Origin: an uncultured Eggerthellaceae bacterium
GTDB lineage: Bacteria > Actinomycetota > Coriobacteriia > Coriobacteriales > Eggerthellaceae
NCBI GenBank assembly: GCA_964469815.1
Contig: CAYXZC010000051.1
Coordinates: forward strand, 1-13,851
Length of the DNA stretch: 13,851 bases
Reading direction: 5' to 3'
Shown here: positions 1 through 13,851 of the stretch, one piece after another
Layout of the letters: the number at the start of each line of letters is the position of its first letter
Numbering within the stretch: position 1 is the first letter of the stretch
The notes under the pieces: generated by a model
Database searches by the model: none
What the model saw: the letters and a program-made list of their open reading frames with translations, nothing else
Told to the model about the DNA's origin: nothing
Position numbers and translations under genes: made by a program

Positions 1-2375
<2,375 letters not shown>

Positions 2376-2778
2376 GAAGCTTTTCCTCCTTTATGATCGA
2401 TTGATGATCGAGGTGATTTTGCGAAAAAGTCGCAAGGTACAAAAGCCTATTAAAGAAGTCGGGCTAAGTCAAGGATTTTTTTTACGAGTTGTGGAGATTT
2501 TATGGAGTTTTGATATCTCGCGTAGGTCTGTAAGGCTTGCCGAAATATCAAAACAAAGAACGTCTCCATGCCATGTTTCGAATTCTCATTATTGTCGATA
2601 GATAGAAAGCAGGATCGAAGTCTATAAGCCTTCGATACAAGATATATGCGCCTGATGTGCTTGAGTCGAGGTTCAAGCCAAAGGAGTCGTGAGATCCACT
2701 CGTGCCGGGTTTGCACGAGTTAGCTCACGACGACGACGCGTCGAGACGAAAGCGCATTCGGCGCATTTCATCAGTACG

Positions 2779-2807
2779 AAAAAGGGGCAGGATCGAGATC
2801 CTGCCCC
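2779..2807 (-). terminator. Rho-independent terminator of the LytTR regulator gene. It insulates that gene from the rpoB leader.
   Basis: GC-rich perfect hairpin: GGGGCAGGATC (2784-2794) pairs with GATCCTGCCCC (2797-2807). On the plus strand it is preceded by AAAAA (2779-2783), which is a TTTTT run following the stem on the minus strand. It lies 34 nt past the stop codon at 2841-2843. Confidence 0.75.
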
Positions 2808-2840
2808 TACAGCTGGATATATGATGGATTATTACCTACG

Positions 2841-3566
2841 TTACAGTCCGAGAACCTTCTTAAGCGAAGAAGCCTTTCTACGGCTAACGTCGATCTTGCG
2901 ATCGACATTGTTGAGGGTGAGAAGCAGCTTGCCCCCTTCGACCGATTCGATCTCTTCCACAGTTGAAAGGTTAACGAGATAAGAACGATGCACGCGGAAG
3001 AACCCATGCCCATCGAGGCGCTTCTCGAGCTGCGCCAAGCTGGCCGTTGAGAAATAACGGTTCGTATCGGTCTGGATGTAGGAATAATCATCGCGAGCCT
3101 CGACGAAGCGGATCTTGTCGATCTCGATGAGGATCTTCTTCTGCGCCTTCTCCACAGGAATGCGCTCGCTCTTCTGAACCTGCGCTTGAAGGGCAACCTG
3201 CTCACGAACGCGAGACACAGCCTGCGCCAGACGCTCAGTCTCAACAGGCTTTTGCAAATAGTCGATCGCGTTCACGCGGAAAGCGTCCATCGCGTGTTCG
3301 CTGTAAGCTGTAACGAAGACAACCGCCGGTGGATACTTCAGATTCTGCAAAGCCTCCGCCAAACGCAGACCCGTAGCCTCCGGCATGTTGATATCCAAGA
3401 ACATCACATCACATGGATACTCTTTGAGCTTCTCGATGGCCTCGCGCACGCCTGCGGCCTCTGCCACGACCTCGACACCGCCGACCTCTCCTAGCAAGTA
3501 AGTGAGCTCTGAGCGCGCTGGTGCTTCATCATCAACAATGATCGCTTTGAGCACAATGTCCTCCAT
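2841..3566 (-). CDS. LytTR-family response regulator: REC receiver domain plus LytTR DNA-binding domain (AgrA/LytR/AlgR type).
   Basis: Translation MEDIVLKAIIVDDEAPARSEL...FLDINMP...VVFVTAYSEHA shows receiver-domain acidic and Thr/Lys motifs. C-terminal ...FFRVHRSYLVNLSTVEEI... is the LytTR signature. I prefer the ATG at 3566-3564 as start because it gives a canonical ~241-aa protein with the DD pair at residues 10-11. The ORF track extends to a TTG at 3647, and an ATG at 3626 preceded by GAGG is an alternative. Stop TAA at 2841-2843. Confidence 0.85.
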   Translation of the reverse strand: MEDIVLKAIIVDDEAPARSELTYLLGEVGGVEVVAEAAGVREAIEKLKEYPCDVMFLDINMPEATGLRLAEALQNLKYPPAVVFVTAYSEHAMDAFRVNAIDYLQKPVETERLAQAVSRVREQVALQAQVQKSERIPVEKAQKKILIEIDKIRFVEARDDYSYIQTDTNRYFSTASLAQLEKRLDGHGFFRVHRSYLVNLSTVEEIESVEGGKLLLTLNNVDRKIDVSRRKASSLKKVLGL

Positions 3567-3732
3567 ATCCTTCGGATGCAGATGACTCGAGAGCAGTTTC
3601 ACGACGTGAGACCGTACTCGAACCATGTGCGTTGACCTCGAAATCAACCGTCAGTCAACAACTGTAGCATCTTTATAGCACGACACGCCGTATTGGAGAT
3701 AGAGTAGATTTGGCGCGTATTTTACGTTTGGC

Positions 3733-3738
3733 TTATTA
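3733..3738 (-). promoter_or_regulatory. Candidate -10 box (TATAAT) for the response-regulator transcript.
   Basis: Perfect TATAAT on the minus strand (complement of 3733-3738). It is ~85 nt upstream of the TTG and ~165 nt upstream of the preferred ATG. No convincing -35. Speculative. Confidence 0.25.
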
Positions 3739-3845
3739 TAGCCCATTTTGCAACCGTTCGCCGAATAATCTTACCCGTGCACAAGGAAGTTCCATAGGGG
3801 ATTATCTGTCAACAACCGATCGAACAAGCTTCCGCAATGCACCGA

Positions 3846-4832
3846 CTATCTCTTAGGAATACCCTCCAAGACGATGAAACGGGTACCGGATGCCAACAAG
3901 AGCTCATCGCCAGGATGAATCGAAACCACCGTTTCTGTATCGGAGTTGATATCTCGCTGATCATATGGGGCCTCAACCACCGTCTCTGCATGGTCCACAC
4001 CGCTTATGAGCACTGTCCCATGCGTAGAACCAAGCCCCTTAACGAGCCATTCGCCCTCTTCTGAATGCCAGATCAAAAGATGATGACCGGATACATCCGG
4101 ATCCACATCGTTAATCGCCCCTTCACCCAGAGCAAGCGAACCGATCTCAATCCCATCGATATTCGGATCCAACCAGTGAGGATTTCCTGAAAGGAACCCA
4201 TCAACAAGACGCATCAAAGCGAATGTCGGCATCTGCACATGATCCGTAGTCCGCGAATTGGCAGAACAAGATGGTGTTTTCGGAGTGATAAGGGGCGTTG
4301 CCATACCGGCTCCATGAACCCTTTTCGCAAAATCGATGACCTGCGATGCGGCTCTGTTCGCATTGGCGGTGCAGCCAGCTGTGATCAAGAGCACCATCGC
4401 CATTTCCGCACGCTCATTGACAGTGAATCCGCTTTCGTTCGAGAGTCTATGCAGAACGTTCTTATATATGGATACGTCTTGATGGGCCTTGGCAAGTGCC
4501 CAGACCATCTCTTCGCCCTCTTCCCCGCAGATCATATCAAGTATACGCTGACTCGAGAATGCAGTACGCTTCTGTGCTTTCAACCTCGAAACCACCCTGA
4601 GTGCACTCGCAGAATAATCAGCGAAATAATTCTCCTGAATAGAGCCGATCGGAGCATGCACGACGAAGCGTGATAGCCACGTTTTATCGTCGGTGCGACT
4701 CACAGGACTGATACCATCGGAAAGCGGTCTTCCCGACAGGATCAAAGATGCCAGCTCTTTATTGATAATTCCCCCGTAACGCTTCATTATGTCGAAAAGC
4801 GCTTCACATGGGGTAAGATCATCTTTCATCAT
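3846..4832 (-). CDS. FHA-domain protein. C-terminal forkhead-associated phospho-Thr-binding domain, with an N-terminal ~210 aa region of unknown fold.
   Basis: 328-aa ORF. The C-terminus VSGHHLLIWHSEEGEWLVKGLGSTHGTVLISGVDHAETVV...IHPGDELLLASGTRFIV matches the FHA pattern (..SR.HA.I... D.GS.NGT.VN ... L..GD.I.LG...F.F). The tandem start codons ATGATG (4832-4827) overlap the kinase stop TGA (4821-4819) by 14 nt, consistent with translational coupling. Stop TAG at 3846-3848. Confidence 0.75.
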   Translation of the reverse strand: MMKDDLTPCEALFDIMKRYGGIINKELASLILSGRPLSDGISPVSRTDDKTWLSRFVVHAPIGSIQENYFADYSASALRVVSRLKAQKRTAFSSQRILDMICGEEGEEMVWALAKAHQDVSIYKNVLHRLSNESGFTVNERAEMAMVLLITAGCTANANRAASQVIDFAKRVHGAGMATPLITPKTPSCSANSRTTDHVQMPTFALMRLVDGFLSGNPHWLDPNIDGIEIGSLALGEGAINDVDPDVSGHHLLIWHSEEGEWLVKGLGSTHGTVLISGVDHAETVVEAPYDQRDINSDTETVVSIHPGDELLLASGTRFIVLEGIPKR

Positions 4833-6756
4833 CTATCTTTGCTCCTCGAGATGACGGAGTCGAAATATCATCGATTCCATCATACAGCTCGCCACCGGGA
4901 TCGGAGTCCGCATTCAGCTTCACATTCATGCTTTCCAACAATTCGGCCTTGATATTCGATGATCTTGACGGATCGCTCGATCCTGATGATCTCGGAAGAG
5001 CGCGGAATCTTTTACGCATACGTGGTGCATGTACAGGAAAAGCCGTATCTACGACGAACGGACACCATGACATCACCGACACCGCGAAGATCGCCCAACG
5101 ATACAAATCTCCATAAGCCTCCGGATCGAACGCAGCAACATTCGTCAGGAGTATAAGCATAGCGCCTCCCGCAGCGATACCAATACTTCCGCGAACCAAA
5201 CTCGCTACGCTATCCCTTCGTGTTCCACGCGCCAGAACACCCAGAACAACTGGCAAGAAAAGAAGTAGGACCAAAAGCTCGGATCCAAGCCCCTCCAACT
5301 CGATCGAACCGACTTCAACGGAGAGCGGCTCCATTTGGATCAGAAAGGCCATGGTCACCACAACAGCGGCTCCAAGACCTACAGAAAGGCTCTTCCCAAA
5401 AGCGCGGATAAGATTACGCGCATATAGTGAAAACCGTTTGACACCTTTATTGATGAATGGTGCCCGGCAAGGCTCAAGGATCTCTCCACACAATGCACGC
5501 CCGATATTGGATGCGTACGAAGCGCAGAACGAATCCAGCGCATCATGCATCTCTTCCGCTGAAGGACGCTTTTTGGGATCGTCAACAAGGCACGACCGCA
5601 TGAGAGCCATCAAAGGTGCATCCACCTGTGAAAGAGACTCCGATATCTCTTGAGCAGTAGGCGCCGACGCTAATTCGGATATCGTGCGATGCAGAATAAC
5701 AGCCACCTCGGGTTCTCGTCTGAGCACAACGAACAGATCGTCATCTCCATCGTGGGCCGTCTTCGGCCTTGATCCTACGAAGCGAGGGCTTGCGTCCCCA
5801 TATATAAGAAGGCACAGAATGCTCGCTACAGCATATACATCCGAAGCCTGTGTGCATTTAGGGCATTCAGATGCTTTGGTCGCTACATAAGCCGATGGGT
5901 CGACCCTTGTCTCAGGAGCGGCGAATTCGGGCGTAGCGGCACCAAGGAACCCGTGATCGATATCCTCCACCACATCGATTCGCCCATCCGACGATACATA
6001 AGCTGAACTCAGGTCGATCAACCTTATATCGAACATCCCCTCTTGGATCTGCTCTTCGATAGATTGGCGTGATGTGTCGATCATTATATTCCTGAGTGAG
6101 AGATCCCCATGACCTATCTCGCGATCAAGCACACCGCTACGAGCCAGCACATCAAATATATCGCGCCCCAGTCGCGCAGCAACAAGAGGCGAAAGACGTC
6201 CCGAATCATCGATGGACATACGCGCCATCGCCATCAGTAGATCCTCGCCTTCGATCCATTCCATCACAAGGACAGGACGATCTTCCAAGTACGCTCTTCC
6301 GTAAAGCTTTGGATACCCCTTGATCCCCGACAACATACGATGTACTTCATACTCGCGCTCAAAATGAGGGTCGGTCTTTCTGGATGCATCTGACGCAACA
6401 GCCTTGCCAAACGGTTCGGTATCCTCCACGATCTCCGCATCCATCGTTCGGTGCACATCAGCTTTCCTCACTTTCAAAGCGAAATGCTCCCCGAATACAT
6501 TCGTTGCGTGAATGATGCTGCCTGTGCTCCCCTCGCGAGTACGTGAGCGATCTATGAACAGAGTGCTGAATCTCCTACAATATGATTCTCTTTGACCATC
6601 GGAAAGGGTCATAGGAGCACAGAAATCTTCCAAGTAGATTCTTTCAAGGAAAGCAATGGGCTCCTCTTCGAATATCGCTAGAGAGTCGTCTTCCTCTTCG
6701 TCCGTCATCGTAACAGGAAAAGCTTCTACCTGGATGATATCAACATCACGCGCCAT
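4819..6756 (-). CDS. Hanks-type (eukaryotic-like) protein kinase with a 4-helix transmembrane module and a C-terminal tail. The catalytic loop and DFG motif are atypical.
   Basis: 645 aa. Kinase subdomains are recognisable: FALKVRK (beta3 Lys), E in EREYEVHRML (alphaC), catalytic loop GHGDLSLRNIMID (HGD in place of HRD; LSLRN resembles the Tyr-kinase HRDLAARN more than the Ser/Thr HRDLKPEN), IDLSS (DFG replaced by DLS), TPEFAAPE (APE), DVYAVASILCLL (DxWSxG-like), and KRPSAEEM (subdomain XI Arg). Four hydrophobic helices follow: LSVGLGAAVVVTMAFLIQ, LGSELLVLLLFLPVVLGVLA, SIGIAAGGAMLILLTNVAAF, LYRWAIFAVSVMSWCPFVV. The start ATG is 12 nt after the upstream gene's stop. Confidence 0.85.
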   Translation of the reverse strand: MARDVDIIQVEAFPVTMTDEEEDDSLAIFEEEPIAFLERIYLEDFCAPMTLSDGQRESYCRRFSTLFIDRSRTREGSTGSIIHATNVFGEHFALKVRKADVHRTMDAEIVEDTEPFGKAVASDASRKTDPHFEREYEVHRMLSGIKGYPKLYGRAYLEDRPVLVMEWIEGEDLLMAMARMSIDDSGRLSPLVAARLGRDIFDVLARSGVLDREIGHGDLSLRNIMIDTSRQSIEEQIQEGMFDIRLIDLSSAYVSSDGRIDVVEDIDHGFLGAATPEFAAPETRVDPSAYVATKASECPKCTQASDVYAVASILCLLIYGDASPRFVGSRPKTAHDGDDDLFVVLRREPEVAVILHRTISELASAPTAQEISESLSQVDAPLMALMRSCLVDDPKKRPSAEEMHDALDSFCASYASNIGRALCGEILEPCRAPFINKGVKRFSLYARNLIRAFGKSLSVGLGAAVVVTMAFLIQMEPLSVEVGSIELEGLGSELLVLLLFLPVVLGVLARGTRRDSVASLVRGSIGIAAGGAMLILLTNVAAFDPEAYGDLYRWAIFAVSVMSWCPFVVDTAFPVHAPRMRKRFRALPRSSGSSDPSRSSNIKAELLESMNVKLNADSDPGGELYDGIDDISTPSSRGAKIDDER

Positions 6757-6768
6757 ATCGATATGCGC

Positions 6769-7680
6769 CTAAAGCTTGATGGTGGCTGCACGCGCCCGGC
6801 ATTCAGCAAGATAACGTACTTCTCCGTTTGAATTCAGATGAGGCCTTAGGATTCCTGGAGCATTCTGCTTCAGAAAACCATTGACGGTTCGCATCGTCGA
6901 ACATGAATTCGTAAGATCGTTGAAACATGTACTTAGCTTTTGAGCCTGGTCATACCACTTGGACTTATTCAGTACATAGTTTCCGTTATACCTGTAAGAA
7001 CTGACCCTGATACGGGCTTGGTCACACTTATGAAGCAATGCTGCCGCATCCGTTGGAGCACAACTAGCATGCGTTATATTGGGATCGGTCGAATTCATCG
7101 TAGAGTAAAGATGTTCGAAACCCTCGCAAACTTCGTTGTAGTAAGGCTCAAGGTCTGCATAGCATGCAACCAGATGAGCGTGAATTTCCTCTTCTACCTC
7201 AGGGGGTAACGCATCCGATGTCGAAGAGGATCCCGCGCTTCCTCCCGGCTGAGATGGATAACCGCCTGTGTTATCAGGAAGAGCAACGGAGTCAGTTGGA
7301 CCCTGCGAGGTTGAATCCGAACCGGATCCGGATGAATCACCAAGAATGGATTGTATAGATGAGAAAGCAGGGCCGCCTATAAGGGGCGAAAGTCCGAGCG
7401 TACCCCCTTCGCTGACAGCCGAACTGCCATTCGTTGTCTCAAGAGCGTCAGGAGAACTTGCATCCGTGTGCGATTCGGAGGTTTCGGGGGTTTCCTGGTC
7501 GGAGTTGAAGAACGAATCAGCCACAGAAGCCACTTCGAACGGACTAGTTAAGACCGCAGGGATGCTAACGGCATAAGCGATCGCGCTGAACCCAACGAGT
7601 GTCAACGAGAAAACGGCTAACGAGAACAGCACATGGGAAGAAGCTGTCCTGGAGAACTTCAGCTTGTTTGCTCGTTTCAT
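6769..7680 (-). CDS. Secreted or membrane-anchored protein. It has an N-terminal signal/anchor, a Ser/Gly/Thr/Asp/Pro-rich low-complexity linker and a C-terminal 8-Cys domain of unknown function.
   Basis: Start re-assigned to the ATG at 7680-7678 (MKRANKLKFSRTASSHVLFSLAVFSLTLVGFSAIAYA...). It has AGGAG 9 nt upstream and a classic n/h-region signal peptide with AYA-V. The ORF-track extension to 7851 adds 57 non-signal residues across the promoter region and is probably spurious. Linker: ...DSSGSGSDSTSQGPTDS...GGSAGSSSTSD.... The C-terminal ~140 aa carry 8 Cys. Stop TAG at 6769-6771, 12 nt before the kinase ATG, so this is the first gene of the operon. Confidence 0.65.
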   Translation of the reverse strand: MKRANKLKFSRTASSHVLFSLAVFSLTLVGFSAIAYAVSIPAVLTSPFEVASVADSFFNSDQETPETSESHTDASSPDALETTNGSSAVSEGGTLGLSPLIGGPAFSSIQSILGDSSGSGSDSTSQGPTDSVALPDNTGGYPSQPGGSAGSSSTSDALPPEVEEEIHAHLVACYADLEPYYNEVCEGFEHLYSTMNSTDPNITHASCAPTDAAALLHKCDQARIRVSSYRYNGNYVLNKSKWYDQAQKLSTCFNDLTNSCSTMRTVNGFLKQNAPGILRPHLNSNGEVRYLAECRARAATIKL

Positions 7681-7981
7681 AGCTTCGCACTCCTTTTGAA
7701 ATCCATCAAAATAGTTGCACAACCACGCGAAGCTCTCAGCCCCTATAATCTCAAAACGATCTACATCCCGAAAAGAGGGCGTTCGCGCAGTTACCACACT
7801 GTCTTTCAGGATGCATGCAAGCAAACCAACAAAGAAAGCAAACGCCCTCATATCGGTTGGTTATATACATGCTGTCCTATCAAACCTGACCGGATCAGGC
7901 CATCAGTGTGGTACCCATGATTCTATCAAATCAGATGCTGGCGCGCGATGTTGATGCATGAAGATATCGCCGCTCATTCAA

Positions 7982-8043
7982 ATTCGGATTTTGGTAAATA
8001 TTCATTCGGATTTTTGCAGATCTCTATTCGGATTTTGGTAAAA
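7982..8043. repeat. Three direct repeats [A/T]ATTCGGATTTT[G/T]G with exact 22-bp periodicity. Candidate direct-repeat operator, of the kind bound by LytTR-type regulators.
   Basis: Copy 1 ATTCGGATTTTGGTAAA at 7982-7998, copy 2 ATTCGGATTTTTGCAGA at 8004-8020, copy 3 ATTCGGATTTTGGTAAA at 8026-8042. Copies 1 and 3 are 17/17 identical. The phasing of 22 bp is about two helical turns. They lie in the divergent intergenic region between the minus-strand kinase operon (start 7680) and the plus-strand lipoprotein gene (start 8240). Confidence 0.6.
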
Positions 8044-8129
8044 GCTTATCTGTGCATGAGTTTAGCGTGTGAGCTTAGGACGGTTTTAAACTCACGCTTT
8101 TTGTTTCCCAACTCTCTATGTTCCTGCAA

Positions 8130-8183
8130 TCTATGCGCCCTATGAGCCTTTGCCCCCCATCTCCATTCCAAAAGTTGTACAAC
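8130..8183 (+). promoter_or_regulatory. Promoter/operator element A. A conserved ~55-bp segment ending in the perfect palindrome GTTGTACAAC (8174-8183), 57 bp upstream of the lipoprotein gene.
   Basis: TCTATGCGCCCTATGAGCCTTTGCCCCCCATCTCCATTCCAAAAGTTGTACAAC aligns with 9761-9811 (element B), differing by a few substitutions and a 3-bp indel. GTTGTACAAC is its own reverse complement. Confidence 0.45.
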
Positions 8184-8239
8184 CGCATGATCTAATCTAA
8201 GGCGAAAATGCACCTTGCAAATCACAGAGAGGAGCATTG

Positions 8240-8980
8240 ATGAAAAGGATCATGTATATGATATTGGCTTCTTCCTTAGCCATCAGTTTTGGACTTTGCG
8301 GGTGTCAGAGTAACGAAGTAAACCAAGAAACATCGAAGCAAACTCAAGAAGAGCAAACGTCACCCGATGAAGAAACTCAATCCGTCATTGATGAGATCAA
8401 CTCTATAGGAGATGTAACTTTAGAGAAAAAAGAGTTGATCGATTCAACGCGCCAAGCATATGGCTCCTTAAATTCAGAACAAAAGAATCTCGTTGACAAC
8501 TATGATGTCTTAAAAGCCGCCATATCTTCTCTTGATGAGCTTGAAAGAGCCGAAGAAGAGAAAGCAAAGGCTTTTGCAGTGGGAGAAACTGTCGAAGATG
8601 AAGACTTCAGAGTCACGTTAACAAGCGCACAGCTTGATTCGATACTTGAAAGCCCGAATTCACGTACCTCTTGGGAACCAGACAGCAATGCAACATTTGT
8701 GATATTGGAGTTTGACATAGAAGCATTGAATTCGAATCAAATAGCTGTCGATTCGGGTGCGGTATCGAATGTCGTTGCAACCTACAATGGCAACACATAC
8801 AAGGGCTGGGATTACAAATACGTCGTAAGCGAATTATGGCTTTCAGCAAAACGTACGTATTTTGAGGCAAATATGCCGGTACACGTTTATGTATACACCT
8901 CAATCCCTTCGTCAGCTACATCCGGGTCTGTAACGGTGGATATGGATATTGCTGGGCAAGATAAACAGATCGTAATTTGA
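8240..8980 (+). CDS. Lipoprotein of unknown function: lipobox signal peptide, acidic linker, and a C-terminal beta-rich domain. Tentatively DUF4352/DUF5067-like.
   Basis: ATG at 8240 preceded by GGAG 5 nt upstream; the track's TTG at 8237 is disfavoured. N-terminus MKRIMYMILASSLAISFGLCGCQS has positive n-region, hydrophobic core and Cys, giving a lipobox-like LCGC. An E/Q/T-rich linker is followed by ...ATFVILEFDIEALNSNQIAVD... Stop TGA at 8978-8980. Confidence 0.8.
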   Translation: MKRIMYMILASSLAISFGLCGCQSNEVNQETSKQTQEEQTSPDEETQSVIDEINSIGDVTLEKKELIDSTRQAYGSLNSEQKNLVDNYDVLKAAISSLDELERAEEEKAKAFAVGETVEDEDFRVTLTSAQLDSILESPNSRTSWEPDSNATFVILEFDIEALNSNQIAVDSGAVSNVVATYNGNTYKGWDYKYVVSELWLSAKRTYFEANMPVHVYVYTSIPSSATSGSVTVDMDIAGQDKQIVI

Positions 8981-9079
8981 TAAGGACTTATGACCTGAAG
9001 ATTTTTAAGCCACCAACTCAACGCATTGGACAAAAGTTCATGGATTCATGGTATTTGTAGGAAAAGGAAAGGTAGAAAA

Positions 9080-9634
9080 ATGAAGAGAATAACAAAAGCG
9101 GTCGTAGCTGCAGCATGTACGGCACTACTATCCCTGTCGCTATATGCTTGTGGAACGAATTCCAATAATCAATCCGCTTCTGATAATTCCAACAGTTCCA
9201 GTAGCACACAAGCAGAAAACAACTACGATCCAAAAGTTGAAAGCATCGATTATTCCACCGAGCGTGGCAATATCAAATATGAATACGTAGAAAAAGCGAA
9301 TAGCGAGCTCACAAAGAGCGACAATGCTTTGTTGTTCGTGTTCGACTTCACAAACGAGCAAGATGAACCATCTCCTGCTATCTCACCATTCATTATCGAG
9401 TTCTATCAGAATGGAGTAGAACTGAGCGACTCCCCTTCCTATAGCTCTTCCGGCGGAGATCAATATGAACTACTACGTGCCTCTTCTGACAGCGTTATGA
9501 AAGGCAGCACCATTCAGTTCGGACAGCTCGTTGTACCAAAGGATGACAGCCCTATCACCATCACGGTCAAGCCAAATGGGTATTTCTCAGACAATGAATA
9601 CCAAACCATGGAAGTCGCCATTGATTCTTTGTAG
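9080..9634 (+). CDS. Lipoprotein of unknown function, paralogous in architecture to 8240-8980.
   Basis: ATG at 9080 with GGAAAGG 8 nt upstream; the track extension to 9026 is disfavoured. N-terminus MKRITKAVVAAACTALLSLSLYACGTNSNNQSAS is a signal peptide plus Cys. An S/N-rich linker is followed by ...ALLFVFDFTNEQDEPSPAIS...ITITVKPNGYF, which parallels the ATFVILEFD... segment of the upstream lipoprotein. Stop TAG at 9632-9634. Confidence 0.8.
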   Translation: MKRITKAVVAAACTALLSLSLYACGTNSNNQSASDNSNSSSSTQAENNYDPKVESIDYSTERGNIKYEYVEKANSELTKSDNALLFVFDFTNEQDEPSPAISPFIIEFYQNGVELSDSPSYSSSGGDQYELLRASSDSVMKGSTIQFGQLVVPKDDSPITITVKPNGYFSDNEYQTMEVAIDSL

Positions 9635-9703
9635 GATGATAGATGTAACGCCCTTTGGATAAACGCCACCTGCATAAAACGTAAGCATGAATGCATGAAT
9701 TTA

Positions 9704-9741
9704 GTGTGAGGCTGGGGCAGTCCCAGCCTCACACTTTTTTA
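9704..9741 (+). terminator. Strong rho-independent terminator after the second lipoprotein gene.
   Basis: GTGTGAGGCTGGGG (9704-9717), loop CAGT, then CCCAGCCTCACAC (9722-9734), followed by TTTTTT (9735-9740). Confidence 0.85.
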
Positions 9742-9760
9742 TCTTCCTATCCTCCCGCCC

Positions 9761-9811
9761 TCTATGCACCCTACAAGCTTTTGCTCCCCACCCTTCAAAA
9801 AGTTGTACAAC
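9761..9811 (+). promoter_or_regulatory. Promoter/operator element B. A second copy of the ~55-bp element with the palindrome GTTGTACAAC (9802-9811), 60 bp upstream of the SPFH gene start.
   Basis: TCTATGCACCCTACAAGCTTTTGCTCCCCACCCTTCAAAAAGTTGTACAAC. It is followed by the -10-like TAATAT (9812-9817). Confidence 0.45.
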
Positions 9812-9870
9812 TAATATGAGAAATTCGAGGATATGCTTCTCCCAAAAAGTCACCTTTGGAAGAAGCGATA

Positions 9871-11037
9871 ATGAGTCTGATCGATGTCATCAAATATGAG
9901 GGAGATAACCAGACCTTCGTTTGGAAACACCCTAAAGAAGACTTCAACACCGGATCCCAGCTCATAGTTCACGAAGCTCAAGAAGCGATCTTCTTCCTTA
10001 ATGGCCAAGCTCTAGATTCATTTCAACCGGGACGATATGAGCTCGAGACCCAAAACATCCCACTTCTCAATAAAGCAATAAACCTTCCTTCTGGTGGAGA
10101 AAGCCCTTTTCATGCAGAAGTGTATTTCATCAATCTTGTTGAACAGATGGGAATAAGTTGGGGCACGAACTCCAAGATCCAATTCATGGATCCTGAGTTC
10201 AACTTCCCTCTTTCGATCGGCGCTTCAGGAGAAATGGCCTTGGCAGTCCGCGAGCCGAAAAAACTTCTTCTGAAGATAGTGGGAACCGAGGCGATCCTTT
10301 CACAAGATAGTCTGATCAGATACTTCAAATCTTTTCTGCAAACAAGGATCAAGACCGCTATCGCACAGGCGATCCCTGAGAACAACCTATCCATCTTTCA
10401 AATGGATGCGCACCTTGTTGAGCTTTCCAACGAAGTGAAGAAACGCCTTCAATCTGATTTCAATGAATATGGCCTTGAGCTCACTCAGATGATGGTCACC
10501 ACAGTGGTCAAACCTGAAGGGGATCCGATATACGAACAATTCAAAGAGCTTTATTTCCGCCAATATGCAGATGTGAAAGATGCACAGATCAATCAGCAAG
10601 TTGGCGTCATCAATCAGGAGACCATTGCTAAGCAGACTGTTATAGAGGCAAAAGGAATTGCCGAGAAACGACAAGTCGAAGGTTACACCTATCAACAAGA
10701 GCGCGGCTTTGATGTTGCAGAACAAATGGCGCAAAACGAAGCCGTAGGCGAATTCGCGAATATGGGTATCGGTCTTGGAATGATGTCAGGTATTGGGGGC
10801 ACCATGGGCACTGTGGTTGGTGGAGCAGTGTCTGAAGCTATGGGAGATCCAGCGCTGTTCGGAGGAGTCGCTCAAAACGTTCAGAATCAAACCTCTAGTG
10901 CCATGTCTGATTCGAAGCAGCCAATAGCTGTTTCAGGCAACAATGAAGATAAGGCTTTTCGTTTTTGCTCTGGCTGCGGACATCAATTCGCCGATAACGA
11001 TAGATTCTGCCCTCAATGCGGGAAACGGAGGGAATAG
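9871..11037 (+). CDS. SPFH/Band-7 (stomatin-prohibitin-flotillin-HflKC) superfamily protein of the COG4260 type (B. subtilis YdjI-like; 'virion core protein' misnomer family). It carries a C-terminal C4 zinc ribbon.
   Basis: ATG at 9871 (MSLIDVIKYEGDNQTFVWKHP...) has GGAAGAAG 5 nt upstream; the track's TTG at 9856 is disfavoured. N-terminus IDVIKYEGDNQTFVWKHPKEDFNTGSQLIVHEAQEAIFFLNGQALDSFQPGRYELETQNIPLL matches the conserved COG4260 opening (IDVIEW.....L.WR.P.....I.NGA.L.VRESQ.AVFV.EGQ..D.F.PG.H.L.T.N.P.L). A Gly/Met-rich segment follows. The C-terminus FRFCSGCGHQFADNDRFCPQCGKRRE gives CxxC-x10-CxxC. Stop TAG at 11035-11037. Confidence 0.85.
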   Translation: MSLIDVIKYEGDNQTFVWKHPKEDFNTGSQLIVHEAQEAIFFLNGQALDSFQPGRYELETQNIPLLNKAINLPSGGESPFHAEVYFINLVEQMGISWGTNSKIQFMDPEFNFPLSIGASGEMALAVREPKKLLLKIVGTEAILSQDSLIRYFKSFLQTRIKTAIAQAIPENNLSIFQMDAHLVELSNEVKKRLQSDFNEYGLELTQMMVTTVVKPEGDPIYEQFKELYFRQYADVKDAQINQQVGVINQETIAKQTVIEAKGIAEKRQVEGYTYQQERGFDVAEQMAQNEAVGEFANMGIGLGMMSGIGGTMGTVVGGAVSEAMGDPALFGGVAQNVQNQTSSAMSDSKQPIAVSGNNEDKAFRFCSGCGHQFADNDRFCPQCGKRRE

Positions 11038-11043
11038 ATCATT

Positions 11044-11709
11044 ATGGACATCAAAAAGCAACACATTGCTGTTATTGTTCTAGCTATCGGCTTCATTGCA
11101 TACGCATGCATTTGCCTCCTTTTATTCGAAAAAGGTATCGTCTTTTGGGCTGAACTTGGTTTCACCTTTGTAGCCTTTTTGCTCACTGCTTACACAACAC
11201 AACGGCCTGAAAGCAAGAAGCTCTTTTTAAACCTCCCTCTTTATGTGATCGCATCGGTATATCTCACGATTCAGTTGATCATAAGCATCGTTTTCATGGC
11301 GGTGCAAACAGCATGCGAACCATGGTGTTATGTGGTCAGCGTCGCTCTTCTAGCTTTTTATCTATGCATTTTGTTAGCCACTCGGGCAACCGTTCAGCAT
11401 ATTGGTGAAGTTGATAAGAGCATCCAACAGAATACAGCTTTCATCAAGAATCTGATCTTGAAGCTGGAAGCATTGAGGGATGAAGTCGACGGATCGCGAC
11501 AGGAAGAAATCGAAGATTTGATCTCTCTTGCCCGCTATTCGAATTTGCAATCCTGTGAAGCTTCACGAGAGATCGAAATAAGCATCACAGAATCTGTGGA
11601 AGAACTTGATTCGGCTATTCAAAACAACGATCGCGATGCCATATCCGAGGCAGTAGATCAGATATCAAAACAGCTCAGACAACGCGACCGAGTTTGTAAG
11701 GTGAAGTAG
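11044..11709 (+). CDS. Integral membrane protein with 4 predicted TM helices and a C-terminal acidic coiled-coil cytoplasmic tail. No recognisable family.
   Basis: ATG 6 nt after the SPFH stop; GGAGGG upstream. Hydrophobic helices: IAVIVLAIGFIAYACICLLLF, LGFTFVAFLLTAYTT, LPLYVIASVYLTIQLIISIVFMAV, VVSVALLAFYLCILLA. The tail has heptad-like charged character (...LKLEALRDEVDGSRQEEIEDLISLAR...). Stop TAG at 11707-11709. Confidence 0.75.
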   Translation: MDIKKQHIAVIVLAIGFIAYACICLLLFEKGIVFWAELGFTFVAFLLTAYTTQRPESKKLFLNLPLYVIASVYLTIQLIISIVFMAVQTACEPWCYVVSVALLAFYLCILLATRATVQHIGEVDKSIQQNTAFIKNLILKLEALRDEVDGSRQEEIEDLISLARYSNLQSCEASREIEISITESVEELDSAIQNNDRDAISEAVDQISKQLRQRDRVCKVK

Positions 11710-11715
11710 CGATTA

Positions 11716-12192
11716 ATGCCTCGGATTCCTGCACATAAAATCGAAGAAAAAGCGATTAACCTTATTCGCTCAAATGTTGCTTTATTTGATGCGTTATATC
11801 GTGAGGTATCTCATAGAGATTATGGTATAGATGCAGTTATTGAACTCTTCGACCATGACGAAATAACAGGTCGACTCATTCTATTACAAGTAAAAGGATC
11901 AGAGTCAAGATATACGATCGGCACAAGATCCGGTGTTGTATCCTGTCAAGTATCGCAAGGAACACTTAAGTATTTGAATCAAAACAACATACCTGTTGTT
12001 CTTGTTGCCGTAGACATAGCAAATCAATGTTTCTTTTACACGTGTCTTGCAGACACTGAAGTGGTTAATAGAAATGTCAATCAGCCAACCGTTCATTTAA
12101 TTGCGGAAAACGTATGTCAAAGAGAAGAATCTACTTTTACAGAATGGCTCAAAGAACTAGCAGAAGACTATTACGGAAGGCGGCAACAATGA
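11716..12192 (+). CDS. Small Mrr-like PD-(D/E)xK restriction-endonuclease-fold protein (DUF4365-like).
   Basis: 158 aa. The core HRDYGIDAVIELFDHDEITGRLILLQVKGSES matches the Mrr_cat/DUF4365 pattern (E..DyGiDg.iE ... h.vQvKs): Asp on the first strand, then an (E/Q)xK strand. ATG at 11716 is 6 nt after the upstream stop. Stop TGA at 12190-12192 overlaps the next ATG as ATGA. GC content is markedly lower than in the rest of the window. Confidence 0.7.
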   Translation: MPRIPAHKIEEKAINLIRSNVALFDALYREVSHRDYGIDAVIELFDHDEITGRLILLQVKGSESRYTIGTRSGVVSCQVSQGTLKYLNQNNIPVVLVAVDIANQCFFYTCLADTEVVNRNVNQPTVHLIAENVCQREESTFTEWLKELAEDYYGRRQQ

Positions 12193-13652
12193 AAGCAATG
12201 CAGTGCGAGCTTTGTGGTGCAACGGAGATTGTCAAAGATGGAGATTTTTTTGTCTGCCAGAGTTGTGGGATGAAATACACTCCTGAAAGCGCAAAAAAGA
12301 TGGTGATTGAAGGTGTTGTTCAGGTTGAGGGAACGATTTCTTTAGATGAAAGTTTAAAGCTTAAAAACTACATCGATCGCGCTGAATCATTACTAGATGA
12401 AAAAAGATATTTGGAAGCATACCAGGAATGCCGTGAAGGATTGCACATCGATTCCATGAACCCCTATCTAAGAATCATTGCTCTTTTTGCTGATTATGCG
12501 CCAATGTCTAAGGAACTCGATTGGTGTAAAAAAGGTGAAAAGATCGGAGAAGAAACAAGCTCTTGCCTGAAAGAGATTCATAATCAAATTGGCGACTGTG
12601 AAGATTTCGGTAAAGTGTGCGCGAAGTATTTATCTCTAATTAAAGCATTAGAAACAGAGAACTATTTCGCATGTAGAACTGCTGCAAAACAAGCTGATGT
12701 AGAATTGATCGCTGTTTTGGGCACGATCAACATAAATGGTAGTTACAGCGATTCTTCTCGAATGAAGGACAAATATGCGATAGAAGCCAAGAAAAAGGAT
12801 GCAGAGAACGGGCTTTTTGATGGATTCATAGGTACTGCAGAATTAGCTCAAACGATACTCGAATTAATTAAAGATCCAATTCAAATTGGACGACAAAATC
12901 TATGGACAATGCATGTCTATACAGAAGGTGCCAGCAAATTCGATGAACCACTATATCAATCTCGGTTAAAAAAGATACAACAGGAATTTTTTAAATACAC
13001 CAAAATGTGTGATGATTTCGAGGAAAAGCAGAAAAAGATCGAACAAGAAAAGAAAGCGAAAGAATACTGGGATAAACATCCAGATAAGAAGATAGCCATC
13101 AATAGTCTGATTGAAACCAAATCTAAAGAGCAAGAAGAGATAGATGAACAAATTCGACAACTGCAAGAAAAGATTGATAGAGTAAACCAAGAAGTTCCTC
13201 TACGGTTCGACGATGCTAATTGGGATATTAAAAAGAATTTGCTACAGAATGAATTAGAGGAAATAGCGCAAAAGATAAGCGGCCTCTCAGTATTTAGTTT
13301 TAAAGAAAAGAAGAAACTCGATGCATTGCATATTGAGAAAACTGAACAATTGGATCAATTAAACTCAGAAAAGAAGAAAGCGTTATCAATCGCAAAAAGA
13401 AAACAATCTGACGCAATAAAAGAACTCACTTCTCCTCTAGAAGAGGAGAAGGATCGATTGATTACTAAACGAAAATCTTTGGAAAAACTAATTAATAAGA
13501 AGACTGAAGAACTTGAAAACCCAATACCAACTCAAATACCCAAAAAAGAATATCATAGCGAAAACACTTCGGAACATGCGCCCTCAAATTTGAACGTAAA
13601 TGTCATTAATCAAAGATGTATCACAAAAAATGGCGGAAAAGATAAAGTGTGA
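12189..13652 (+). CDS. Zinc-ribbon protein with an alpha-helical (TPR-like?) middle region and a ~170-aa Lys/Glu-rich coiled coil. Unknown function.
   Basis: Preferred start ATG at 12189 (MKAMQCELCGATEIVKDGDFFVCQSCGMKY), 8 nt after GGAAGG and overlapping the upstream stop. The track extension to 12114 runs through the preceding gene and is unlikely. CxxC-x14-CxxC N-terminal zinc ribbon. Helical segment LDEKRYLEAYQECREGLHIDSMNPYLRIIALFADYA. Residues ~290-460 are dominated by E/K/Q heptads (EKQKKIEQEKKAKEYW...EQIRQLQEKIDRVNQE...). Stop TGA at 13650-13652. Confidence 0.75.
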   Translation: MKAMQCELCGATEIVKDGDFFVCQSCGMKYTPESAKKMVIEGVVQVEGTISLDESLKLKNYIDRAESLLDEKRYLEAYQECREGLHIDSMNPYLRIIALFADYAPMSKELDWCKKGEKIGEETSSCLKEIHNQIGDCEDFGKVCAKYLSLIKALETENYFACRTAAKQADVELIAVLGTININGSYSDSSRMKDKYAIEAKKKDAENGLFDGFIGTAELAQTILELIKDPIQIGRQNLWTMHVYTEGASKFDEPLYQSRLKKIQQEFFKYTKMCDDFEEKQKKIEQEKKAKEYWDKHPDKKIAINSLIETKSKEQEEIDEQIRQLQEKIDRVNQEVPLRFDDANWDIKKNLLQNELEEIAQKISGLSVFSFKEKKKLDALHIEKTEQLDQLNSEKKKALSIAKRKQSDAIKELTSPLEEEKDRLITKRKSLEKLINKKTEELENPIPTQIPKKEYHSENTSEHAPSNLNVNVINQRCITKNGGKDKV

Positions 13653-13851
13653 GCTTGAGGACGCAGGAGCCATTGTTTCTATTGAGTGATTAGTTATCTT
13701 TCACCGTTTCCAGCTATACATCTAGTACTTCAAAGAACCCAATTGCCTTTTATGTAAGCCACATTAATAGTTCGTTTAAGTTTTCACCATCCAAGTCACC
13801 TGATCGAGCACAGGCTTGACATTAGCAAATAGGAATGCCGGTTTTTGACCG

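Follow-up and report, generated by a model that had tools for sequence, protein, structure and literature searches.

The closest described systems are the actinobacterial Ser/Thr kinase–FHA pairs, namely PknB and PknA with the FHA partners FhaA, FhaB/FipA, GarA/OdhI and EmbR. The kinase domain of PknB and PknA is cytoplasmic and lies N-terminal to the membrane segment, and the layout that a recent atlas of bacterial Ser/Thr kinases describes as commonest is a kinase domain with a transmembrane (TM) helix C-terminal to it. Eggerthella, Slackia and Adlercreutzia of the family Eggerthellaceae are gut bacteria with roles in drug and polyphenol metabolism; to our knowledge, almost nothing is known of how Eggerthellaceae sense their surroundings. 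A three-gene locus was analysed here in a stretch of 13,851 nucleotides (nt) from an uncultured Eggerthellaceae bacterium (contig CAYXZC010000051.1, positions 1–13,851), which is referred to as the window. The locus encodes an anchored stalk protein (gene 1), a polytopic Hanks-type kinase (gene 2) and a two-domain FHA protein (gene 3). The trio is a real cassette that is conserved in gut Coriobacteriia and restricted to this lineage. We consider it somewhat probable that the trio acts as one self-contained transmembrane signalling cassette, specific to Coriobacteriia, that operates through Ser/Thr phosphorylation.

The conservation of the trio was evaluated by a genome scan, in which an FHA-protein alignment of close relatives served as the query and one genome per species (GTDB) was covered. 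The scan returned 28 loci, all in Coriobacteriia and mostly in Eggerthellaceae (Slackia, Cryptobacterium, Adlercreutzia, Enterorhabdus, Eggerthella and Candidatus Aphodovivens), and Collinsella and Paratractidigestivibacter were also among them. Gene 1 was detected with a profile built from the C-terminal domains of five divergent members. According to the open reading frame (ORF) and profile analysis, the full trio was present in the same order and on the same strand in 25 of the 28 loci. In these 25 loci, the ORF directly ahead of the kinase was gene 1, and it often overlapped the kinase start by 4 nt. The remaining three loci were one truncated at the end of its contig, a second copy without gene 1 and a lone frameshifted FHA gene. 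The second copy, in Enterorhabdus sp. P55, consisted of a kinase of 497 amino acids (aa) with one TM helix and an FHA gene, and in one Coriobacteriaceae genome only the frameshifted FHA gene was present (loci L029 and L036). The order of the trio was kept at kinase identities of 81%, 46%, 35%, 31% and 30%, each time in a different neighbourhood. Moreover, the trio was carried by five distinct metagenome loci (L001, L002, L004, L005 and L007), two of which were duplicated by L003 and L006. The gene for the FHA protein with its N-domain was located downstream of the kinase in all kinase-bearing loci, and no other neighbour was conserved in more than five loci in an all-against-all clustering of the flanking ORFs. 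The first-pass annotation had proposed the three genes as one unit, and the species loci bear this out.

The spacing within the window was examined from the coordinates, which confirmed the earlier description of three minus-strand genes with a gap of 12 nt between the gene 1 stop and the gene 2 ATG and an overlap of 14 nt between genes 2 and 3. A GGAG box was present ahead of gene 3. No terminator-like site was found between genes 1, 2 and 3, and the sole strong one was located after a LytTR gene, which is described below. The tight spacing or overlap suggests that the three genes may be co-translated. The ORF of gene 1 as listed spanned 6769–7851; however, the ATG at 7680 is preceded, at a distance of 9 nt, by an AAGGAG box, and every more distant orthologue started at an MKR or MKK that matched this ATG. 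Hence, the 303-aa form (6769–7680) is the likely product, and ATG 7680 is most likely the real start of gene 1.

The catalytic domain of gene 2 is N-terminal and cytoplasmic, and it is followed by a conserved juxtamembrane segment, four TM helices and a cytoplasmic tail rich in Ser. Pfam Pkinase matched the protein with 42.4 bits (cut-off 31.7, E 7e-11), and 41 kinase relatives were returned by the database search, the closest of which was 86% identical. In an alignment of 33 relatives, the most distant of which had about 25% identity, the invariant residues included G76 of the Gly-rich loop, K95, E135, H216, D218, N223, D248, T275, P281, E282, D306 and R397. The catalytic Asp, the β3 Lys, the APE motif and the subdomain XI Arg, all of which had been noted as retained in the window, were therefore invariant in the family. 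Judged from the alignment, the full catalytic residue set of a working Hanks kinase is present, and this speaks against a pseudokinase; in the pseudokinase families known from bacteria to date, it is the VAIK Lys, the HRD Asp or the DFG Asp that is lost (bioRxiv 10.1101/2025.01.12.632604).

The motif states were counted over 67 family members. The catalytic loop followed the pattern H-x-D-[LIV]-S-x-x-N in 66 of them, indicating that Ser replaces the catalytic-loop Lys family-wide, and Ser220 of the window kinase aligned with the Lys of HRDVKPAN in PknB in the profile search of the PDB. An Arg at D+4, counted from the catalytic Asp, was found in about 32 of the 67 members, including the window clade. 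The DFG position read DFGS in 45 members, DLSS in 14 and DMGS in 6. The translation gave the catalytic loop HGDLSLRN and DLS at the DFG position exactly as had been reported before. The family also carried a conserved insert between the catalytic loop and the DFG position (Table 1), which was absent from PknB. A PDB sequence search with the single kinase gave no match, and only the family profile reached PknB. A nearly invariant RRFSTLF-x-D segment preceded the Gly-rich loop (kinase residues 61–69, ~6550–6576, minus strand); by its sequence, it resembles a basophilic phospho-acceptor or pseudosubstrate site.

Gene 2 most probably encodes an active Hanks-type kinase that is specific for Ser/Thr, a specificity that we infer from its comparison with known kinases. 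In the P+1 types of Hanks and Hunter, Tyr kinases have the loop P-I/V-K/R-W-T/M-A-P-E and Ser/Thr kinases have the loop G-T/S-x-x-Y/F-x-A-P-E. The window loop was of the Ser/Thr type and did not match the PxxW type of tyrosine kinases; in the PDB profile search, its A-T-P-E-F-A-A-P-E aligned with G-T-A-Q-Y-L-S-P-E of PknB. The best solved relatives of the family profile were PknB, PknA, Ire1, TTK, StkP and RIPK1, and no tyrosine kinase was found among the best 60 PDB matches. Furthermore, the hidden Markov model PK_Tyr_Ser-Thr reached 23.5 bits, below the score of Pkinase, and covered residues 118–229 only, which correspond to the N-lobe and the catalytic loop.

The first-pass annotation had likened the catalytic loop to that of eukaryotic Tyr kinases, of which HRDLAARN is the accepted hallmark (PMC4771162). 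A kinase of the window clade with the Hanks fold and tyrosine or dual specificity would use the Arg at D+4 in place of the missing Lys, and this Arg would shape a tyrosine pocket. The Arg is indeed positioned exactly at the tyrosine-kinase Arg (HGDLSLRN versus HRDLAARN) while the Lys is absent, the dual-specificity kinase TTK was among the solved relatives, and the FHA partner lacks the canonical phosphothreonine-binding Arg. However, the Arg was confined to about half of the members, with no change in the partner proteins, and compared with HRDLAARN or HRDLRAAN the loop has Ser at D+2 and Gly in place of the HRD Arg. A hydroxyl at the Lys position is also found in RIO1 (LVHADLSEYN) and PRPK/Bud32 (HGDLTTSN), neither of which is a tyrosine kinase. 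The family signature is thus the exchange of Lys for Ser, and the P+1 loop with its invariant Thr, the model scores and the solved relatives all point away from tyrosine. As a statement on specificity, the comparison with Tyr kinases was weakened: a tyrosine kinase is very doubtful, and a tyrosine or dual-specificity kinase confined to the window clade is improbable.

The membrane topology of the kinase was explored with a hydropathy scan, which placed four segments after the kinase domain of the window protein; most relatives had four as well. The earlier description of four TM helices instead of a single one with PASTA repeats was therefore upheld, and this arrangement, which lacks an ectodomain, is typical of the family. 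The odd loops were short and acidic (EPLSVEVGSIELEGLGSE; DPEAYGDLYRW), whereas the even loop RGTRRDS and the tail PRMRKRFR were basic. Because these charges fit the positive-inside rule, the kinase domain and the tail are assigned to the cytoplasm, with almost nothing of the protein outside. By itself, the kinase would have no ectodomain and probably could not sense the outside alone. PASTA repeats were not matched; NCBIfam PknB_PASTA (NF033483) scored 12.5 bits against a cut-off of 450.

The most distant kinase relatives (HRD[IL]SPxN, DFGS) had one TM helix followed by WG_beta_rep repeats. The same N-domain–FHA protein followed these WG-repeat kinases, and gene 1 was absent. Kinase and N-domain–FHA protein are therefore the constant pair. 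The absence of gene 1 where the kinase carries its own WG ectodomain suggests that gene 1 supplies the ectodomain in trans, and the outside-facing part would be either fused, as WG repeats, or provided by gene 1. The proposal that the upstream protein is an extracytoplasmic partner of the kinase is plausible, and the WG-repeat sister clade supports it indirectly. In two of the three sister-system loci, a gene for an AAA ATPase (AAA and AAA_lid_6) was located upstream. L038 additionally contained a second FHA gene and then another kinase with DUF6273.

The gene 1 protein has a basic (K/R-rich) N-terminus, one long hydrophobic anchor, a disordered Ser/Thr/Gly/Pro-rich stalk of ~110–130 aa and a C-terminal helical-bundle domain. 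The fold of this domain was confidently predicted, and the predicted fold, compared with the PDB only, broadly resembled the four-helix bundles of sensor domains. Gene 1 matched no family in Pfam or NCBIfam, and a search of a large database returned no more than 12 sequence relatives. The orthologues found by neighbourhood shared the same plan, with a C-terminal domain of ~140 aa that has recurring motifs and often ends in DYE-x-RYPGARP. No AxA cleavage site was found to be conserved in the orthologues, so that gene 1 looks signal-anchored; the signal anchor is the more likely form and a cleaved signal peptide the less likely one. In this respect, the description of gene 1 as a secreted, Cys-rich protein with eight Cys had to be revised. 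The 23-residue hydrophobic stretch without a conserved cleavage motif makes an anchor likelier than secretion, the Cys count was seven, and Cys richness was a property of the close clade only, in which six Cys were invariant; across the family, the number ranged from 0 to 8.

Gene 1 could instead be the target or cargo of the system, i.e., a surface stalk protein under the control of the kinase and the FHA protein, or merely a co-transcribed envelope protein. A long Ser/Thr/Pro-rich stalk is a typical trait of surface proteins that span the wall, gene 1 has no recognisable ligand-binding family, and it diverged much faster than the other two genes, with 17–25% identity where the FHA protein kept 37–60%. 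Such a role is nevertheless improbable: strict adjacency to the kinase was kept in 25 loci across several families, often with a 4-nt overlap, gene 1 was missing precisely in those loci whose kinase bears an ectodomain itself, and the C-terminal domain of gene 1 is predicted to be extracytoplasmic and would be beyond the reach of a cytoplasmic kinase.

In the AlphaFold model of the gene 3 protein (predicted local distance difference test, pLDDT, 88.4), a disordered linker connects an all-helical N-domain with an FHA domain. The N-domain had no Pfam match in 101 members and no PDB match. A search of 1.84 billion representative proteins with the N-domain profile returned 222 clusters. The full-length clusters were 308–403 aa long, and nearly all were 308–350 aa, which is the length of an N-domain plus an FHA domain. 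No lengths pointing to another arrangement were observed, and going by these lengths, the N-domain seems confined to the N-domain–FHA architecture.

The C-terminal domain of gene 3 had the FHA β-sandwich fold and a Pfam FHA match. In the alignment to solved FHA domains, a G-[A/S] of the family was located where G-R stands in KAPP and 1uht. The position of the canonical FHA Arg was occupied in 101 relatives by Ala (61), Ser (39) or Asp (1) and never by Arg. In the same relatives, the pocket residues S248, H251 and S269 were invariant, and G231 was kept in the window. The FHA Asn was retained in 71 of the 101 relatives, whereas the window has His271. Judged by these positions, the domain is an FHA fold with an incomplete phosphothreonine pocket. 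Hence, only one half of the proposal that the FHA protein is the phospho-reader stood firm: the FHA fold is present, and the reading itself is uncertain in a family without the phosphate-binding Arg. Thr7 of the protein was also considered as a GarA-like phospho-acceptor and was set aside, as it may equally be a helix N-cap (T-P-x-E).

The states of the kinase and of the FHA domain were compared between loci. The degenerate DFG (DLSS or DMGS) was found only where the FHA Asn was replaced by His or Tyr, i.e., in the window, L001, L009, L002 and L010. All loci with DFGS retained the Asn, except L016, the FHA signature of which was missed by the motif search. This co-variation may reflect joint re-tuning or joint decay in the window clade, and it amounts to one or two evolutionary events only.

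Decay would lead to a pair in the window clade that has drifted to a phosphorylation-independent scaffold, in which a weak or dead kinase is bound constitutively by an FHA domain without Arg and Asn. Constitutive binding to a partner is the mode of the FHA-like domains in type III secretion proteins, and 17 members of the family weakly matched the YscD-type FHA family. The family-wide loss of the FHA Arg, the non-RD kinase with DLSS and without the catalytic-loop Lys, and the coincidence of the degenerate DFG with the His or Tyr in place of the FHA Asn are also consistent with a scaffold. On the other hand, K95, E135, D218, N223 and D248 were invariant in the window clade too, which is unexpected for a pseudokinase, given the residue losses typical of the bacterial pseudokinase families (bioRxiv 10.1101/2025.01.12.632604). 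Moreover, S248, H251 and S269 of the FHA domain were invariant, and a co-variation that reduces to one or two phylogenetic events is not independent evidence. A scaffold is therefore regarded as unlikely.

A mechanism was drawn up for the preferred reading of the trio as a Ser/Thr signalling cassette. Gene order, conservation, domain folds, motif states and the topology pattern, as observed above, provide its frame. Within this frame, we infer the contacts between the proteins, the direction of signal flow, the Ser/Thr specificity and the nature of signal and output. Gene 1 would be a type-II anchored protein held in the membrane, the stalk of which places the helical bundle beyond the wall; in the window clade, the bundle would be stabilised by up to three disulfides. 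The anchor would touch the membrane helices of the kinase and thereby give it a sensing ectodomain in trans, and changes at the gene 1 domain could reach the four-TM block by helix–helix contacts. The kinase would then phosphorylate itself, the gene 3 protein or both on Ser or Thr. The FHA domain may dock on the kinase, or the gene 3 protein may be its substrate, and the helical N-domain would carry the output to some target.

Several observations weigh against this mechanism. Co-occurrence is the sole ground for the contact between gene 1 and the kinase. The kinases of the window clade are non-RD (HGD) with DLSS for DFGS, which could reflect weaker catalysis, and the loss of the catalytic-loop Lys means that the mechanism of phosphate transfer differs from the textbook one. 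Furthermore, canonical phospho-reading is doubtful for an FHA domain without the phosphothreonine-contacting Arg and, in the window clade, also without the Asn. These departures could be combined in a split receptor kinase, composed of a polytopic kinase with Ser for Lys and, in the window clade, an added Arg like that of tyrosine kinases, an ectodomain in trans, an Arg-less FHA domain that reads the mark and a helical output domain of a kind not seen before. The FHA domain would in this case have an altered specificity, e.g., for phosphoserine or phosphotyrosine rather than phosphothreonine. As a whole, this combination is improbable as well. If it were true, the window clade could hold a genuine bacterial tyrosine or dual-specificity kinase of the Hanks fold together with a non-canonical reader.

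The surroundings of the trio were also examined, and the features are summarized in Table 1. The minus strand also carries the 5' part of rpoB (1 to about 2350), which extends beyond the window end, followed by the LytTR response-regulator gene (2841–3647). The long plus-strand ORFs at 342–1148 and 1167–2141 are antisense artefacts of the GC-rich rpoB. No histidine kinase gene accompanied the LytTR regulator in the window. The LytTR gene may be co-transcribed with the trio, as the only strong terminator-like hairpin comes after it; it was syntenic only in the four closest loci. Three direct repeats were located in the intergenic region that separates the trio operon from the divergent gene at 8237, and the orphan LytTR gene lies just past the FHA gene. 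LytTR regulators bind phased direct repeats of such a kind. The repeats were considered as a conserved LytTR operator of the cassette, and this was rejected as they were not kept in the closest orthologous loci: the 11-mer core had a single copy in the closest one, L001, and none in the other loci. Across the window, from the rpoB end to the right end, the GC content fell from ~0.60 to 0.36. A DUF4365 protein of the right flank matched a restriction-endonuclease-like model of PADLOC (E 2e-16). The low-GC right flank may be an acquired islet. The orthologous locus L001 has a different flank.

Table 1. Coordinates of the trio, its domains and motifs, the neighbouring features of the window and the sister-system loci.
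Feature	Position (nt)	Strand	Basis or remark
Gene 1, 303-aa bitopic protein	6769..7680	-	ORF and ribosome-binding site; orthologues directly upstream of kinase
Probable signal-anchor/TM segment of gene 1, VLFSLAVFSLTLVGFSAIAYAVS	7564..7632	-	Translation; 23 hydrophobic residues
Predicted helical-bundle domain of gene 1, residues 151–303, probably extracytoplasmic	6772..7230	-	Holds the 7 Cys
Gene 2, 645-aa Hanks-type kinase	4819..6756	-	Pfam Pkinase; family alignment invariants
Catalytic loop HGDLSLRN	6088–6111	-	Translation; non-RD, Ser for Lys, Arg at D+4
DLSS in place of DFG(S)	6004–6015	-	Translation; metal-binding Asp kept
P+1 loop/APE, TPEFAAPE	5911–5934	-	Translation; Thr, Pro and Glu are the invariant T275, P281 and E282
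Conserved ~12-residue insert SRQSIEEQIQEGMF, kinase residues 224–247	~6016–6087	-	Q236 and F242 invariant
Four-TM block; both outer loops short and acidic, the single inner loop basic	5038..5412	-	Translation
Gene 3, 328-aa cytoplasmic two-domain FHA protein	3846..4832	-	AlphaFold model; genome loci
Ten-helix N-domain, residues 1–175	4308..4832	-	Near-invariant loop LSG[RK]PLxDGxSPxSRxxDRxWxSRFVVHAP
FHA domain, residues 203–328, non-canonical	3849..4226	-	G231-S232 for G-R; STHGT for STNGT
LytTR-type response regulator	2841–3647	-	Strong terminator-like hairpin behind it at 2783–2808 (-)
Three 17-nt direct repeats ATTCGGATTTTGGTAAA	7982–8042, within intergenic 7681–8236		Exact 22-bp period; middle copy 82% identical
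Low-GC right flank	8237–13851	+	Probable lipoprotein; DUF5067; SPFH/Band-7 with C-terminal zinc ribbon
Low-GC right flank, further genes	8237–13851	+	Membrane coiled-coil; DUF4365; 512-aa zinc-ribbon coiled-coil protein
Sister-system loci	L008 4609–9539; L037 162–4889; L038 3438–6951		

A literature search on the motif strings, or on Eggerthella with FHA and kinase, gave nothing relevant. By fold and profile, the cassette proteins are placed in the Hanks kinase and FHA superfamilies. The trio is a compact and conserved unit of probable signalling function that is confined to Coriobacteriia and combines several departures from the textbook: a kinase without the catalytic-loop Lys, a four-helix anchor without an ectodomain, a putative ectodomain encoded by a separate gene, an FHA domain without the Arg and two domains without a family assignment. 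It therefore offers natural tests of whether a Hanks kinase with Ser for the catalytic-loop Lys can work, and with which specificity, and of whether an Arg-less FHA domain can read phosphorylation. The practical value will be modest until the signal or the output is identified.

The cassette was finally compared with known systems. Membership of the defence kinases (MADS Mad6, MkoA and PD-T4-6) was considered and set aside, as only generic kinase-domain matches were found in PADLOC and NCBIfam; MAD6 of NCBIfam reached 25 bits against a cut-off of 460, and the partner genes of the system were not present. The family shares the loop H-x-D-L-S/T-x-x-N, with a hydroxyl at the Lys position, with RIO and Bud32/PRPK kinases, and weak NCBIfam matches to Bud32 and APH(3') covered the catalytic loop (Bud32, 14 bits versus a cut-off of 372). 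In contrast to RIO and Bud32, gene 2 has a full activation segment, the APE motif and subdomains IX–XI (D306, R397). With eukaryotic tyrosine kinases, the window clade shares the Arg at D+4 and the absence of Lys at D+2; it differs from them in Ser rather than Ala at D+2, in the P+1 loop of the Ser/Thr type, in the lower score of the Tyr model and in an Arg that is not conserved. Sensor kinases that rely on a separate membrane partner, such as intramembrane-sensing histidine kinases with accessory proteins, are alike by analogy, as the extracytoplasmic loops of the kinase are short and a co-encoded membrane protein would bear the exposed domain. Gene 2 has the Hanks chemistry, however, and its partner is a single-pass stalk protein instead of a transporter, with which the contact would be made.

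The closest likeness is to PknB and PknA, with which the kinase fold is shared (PknB, E about 1e-13) as well as the cytoplasmic position of the kinase domain ahead of the membrane segment. The gene 2 family differs from them in its four TM helices without PASTA or another ectodomain, in the Ser that stands in place of the catalytic-loop Lys and in the 12-residue insert, and no PP2C phosphatase gene belongs to the cassette. On the side of the FHA partner, the domain of gene 3 lacks the canonical Arg. The N-terminus of gene 3 is a folded ten-helix domain with no relation to the N-domain of FhaA or to a family in Pfam, and it is not an ETTS-type tail; NCBIfam FhaB reached 16 bits against a cut-off of 125, and gene 3 is not of the FhaA or GarA/OdhI type. 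By analogy, this uncharacterised cassette may work like the actinobacterial Ser/Thr kinase–FHA pairs, in a form that is restricted to its own lineage.

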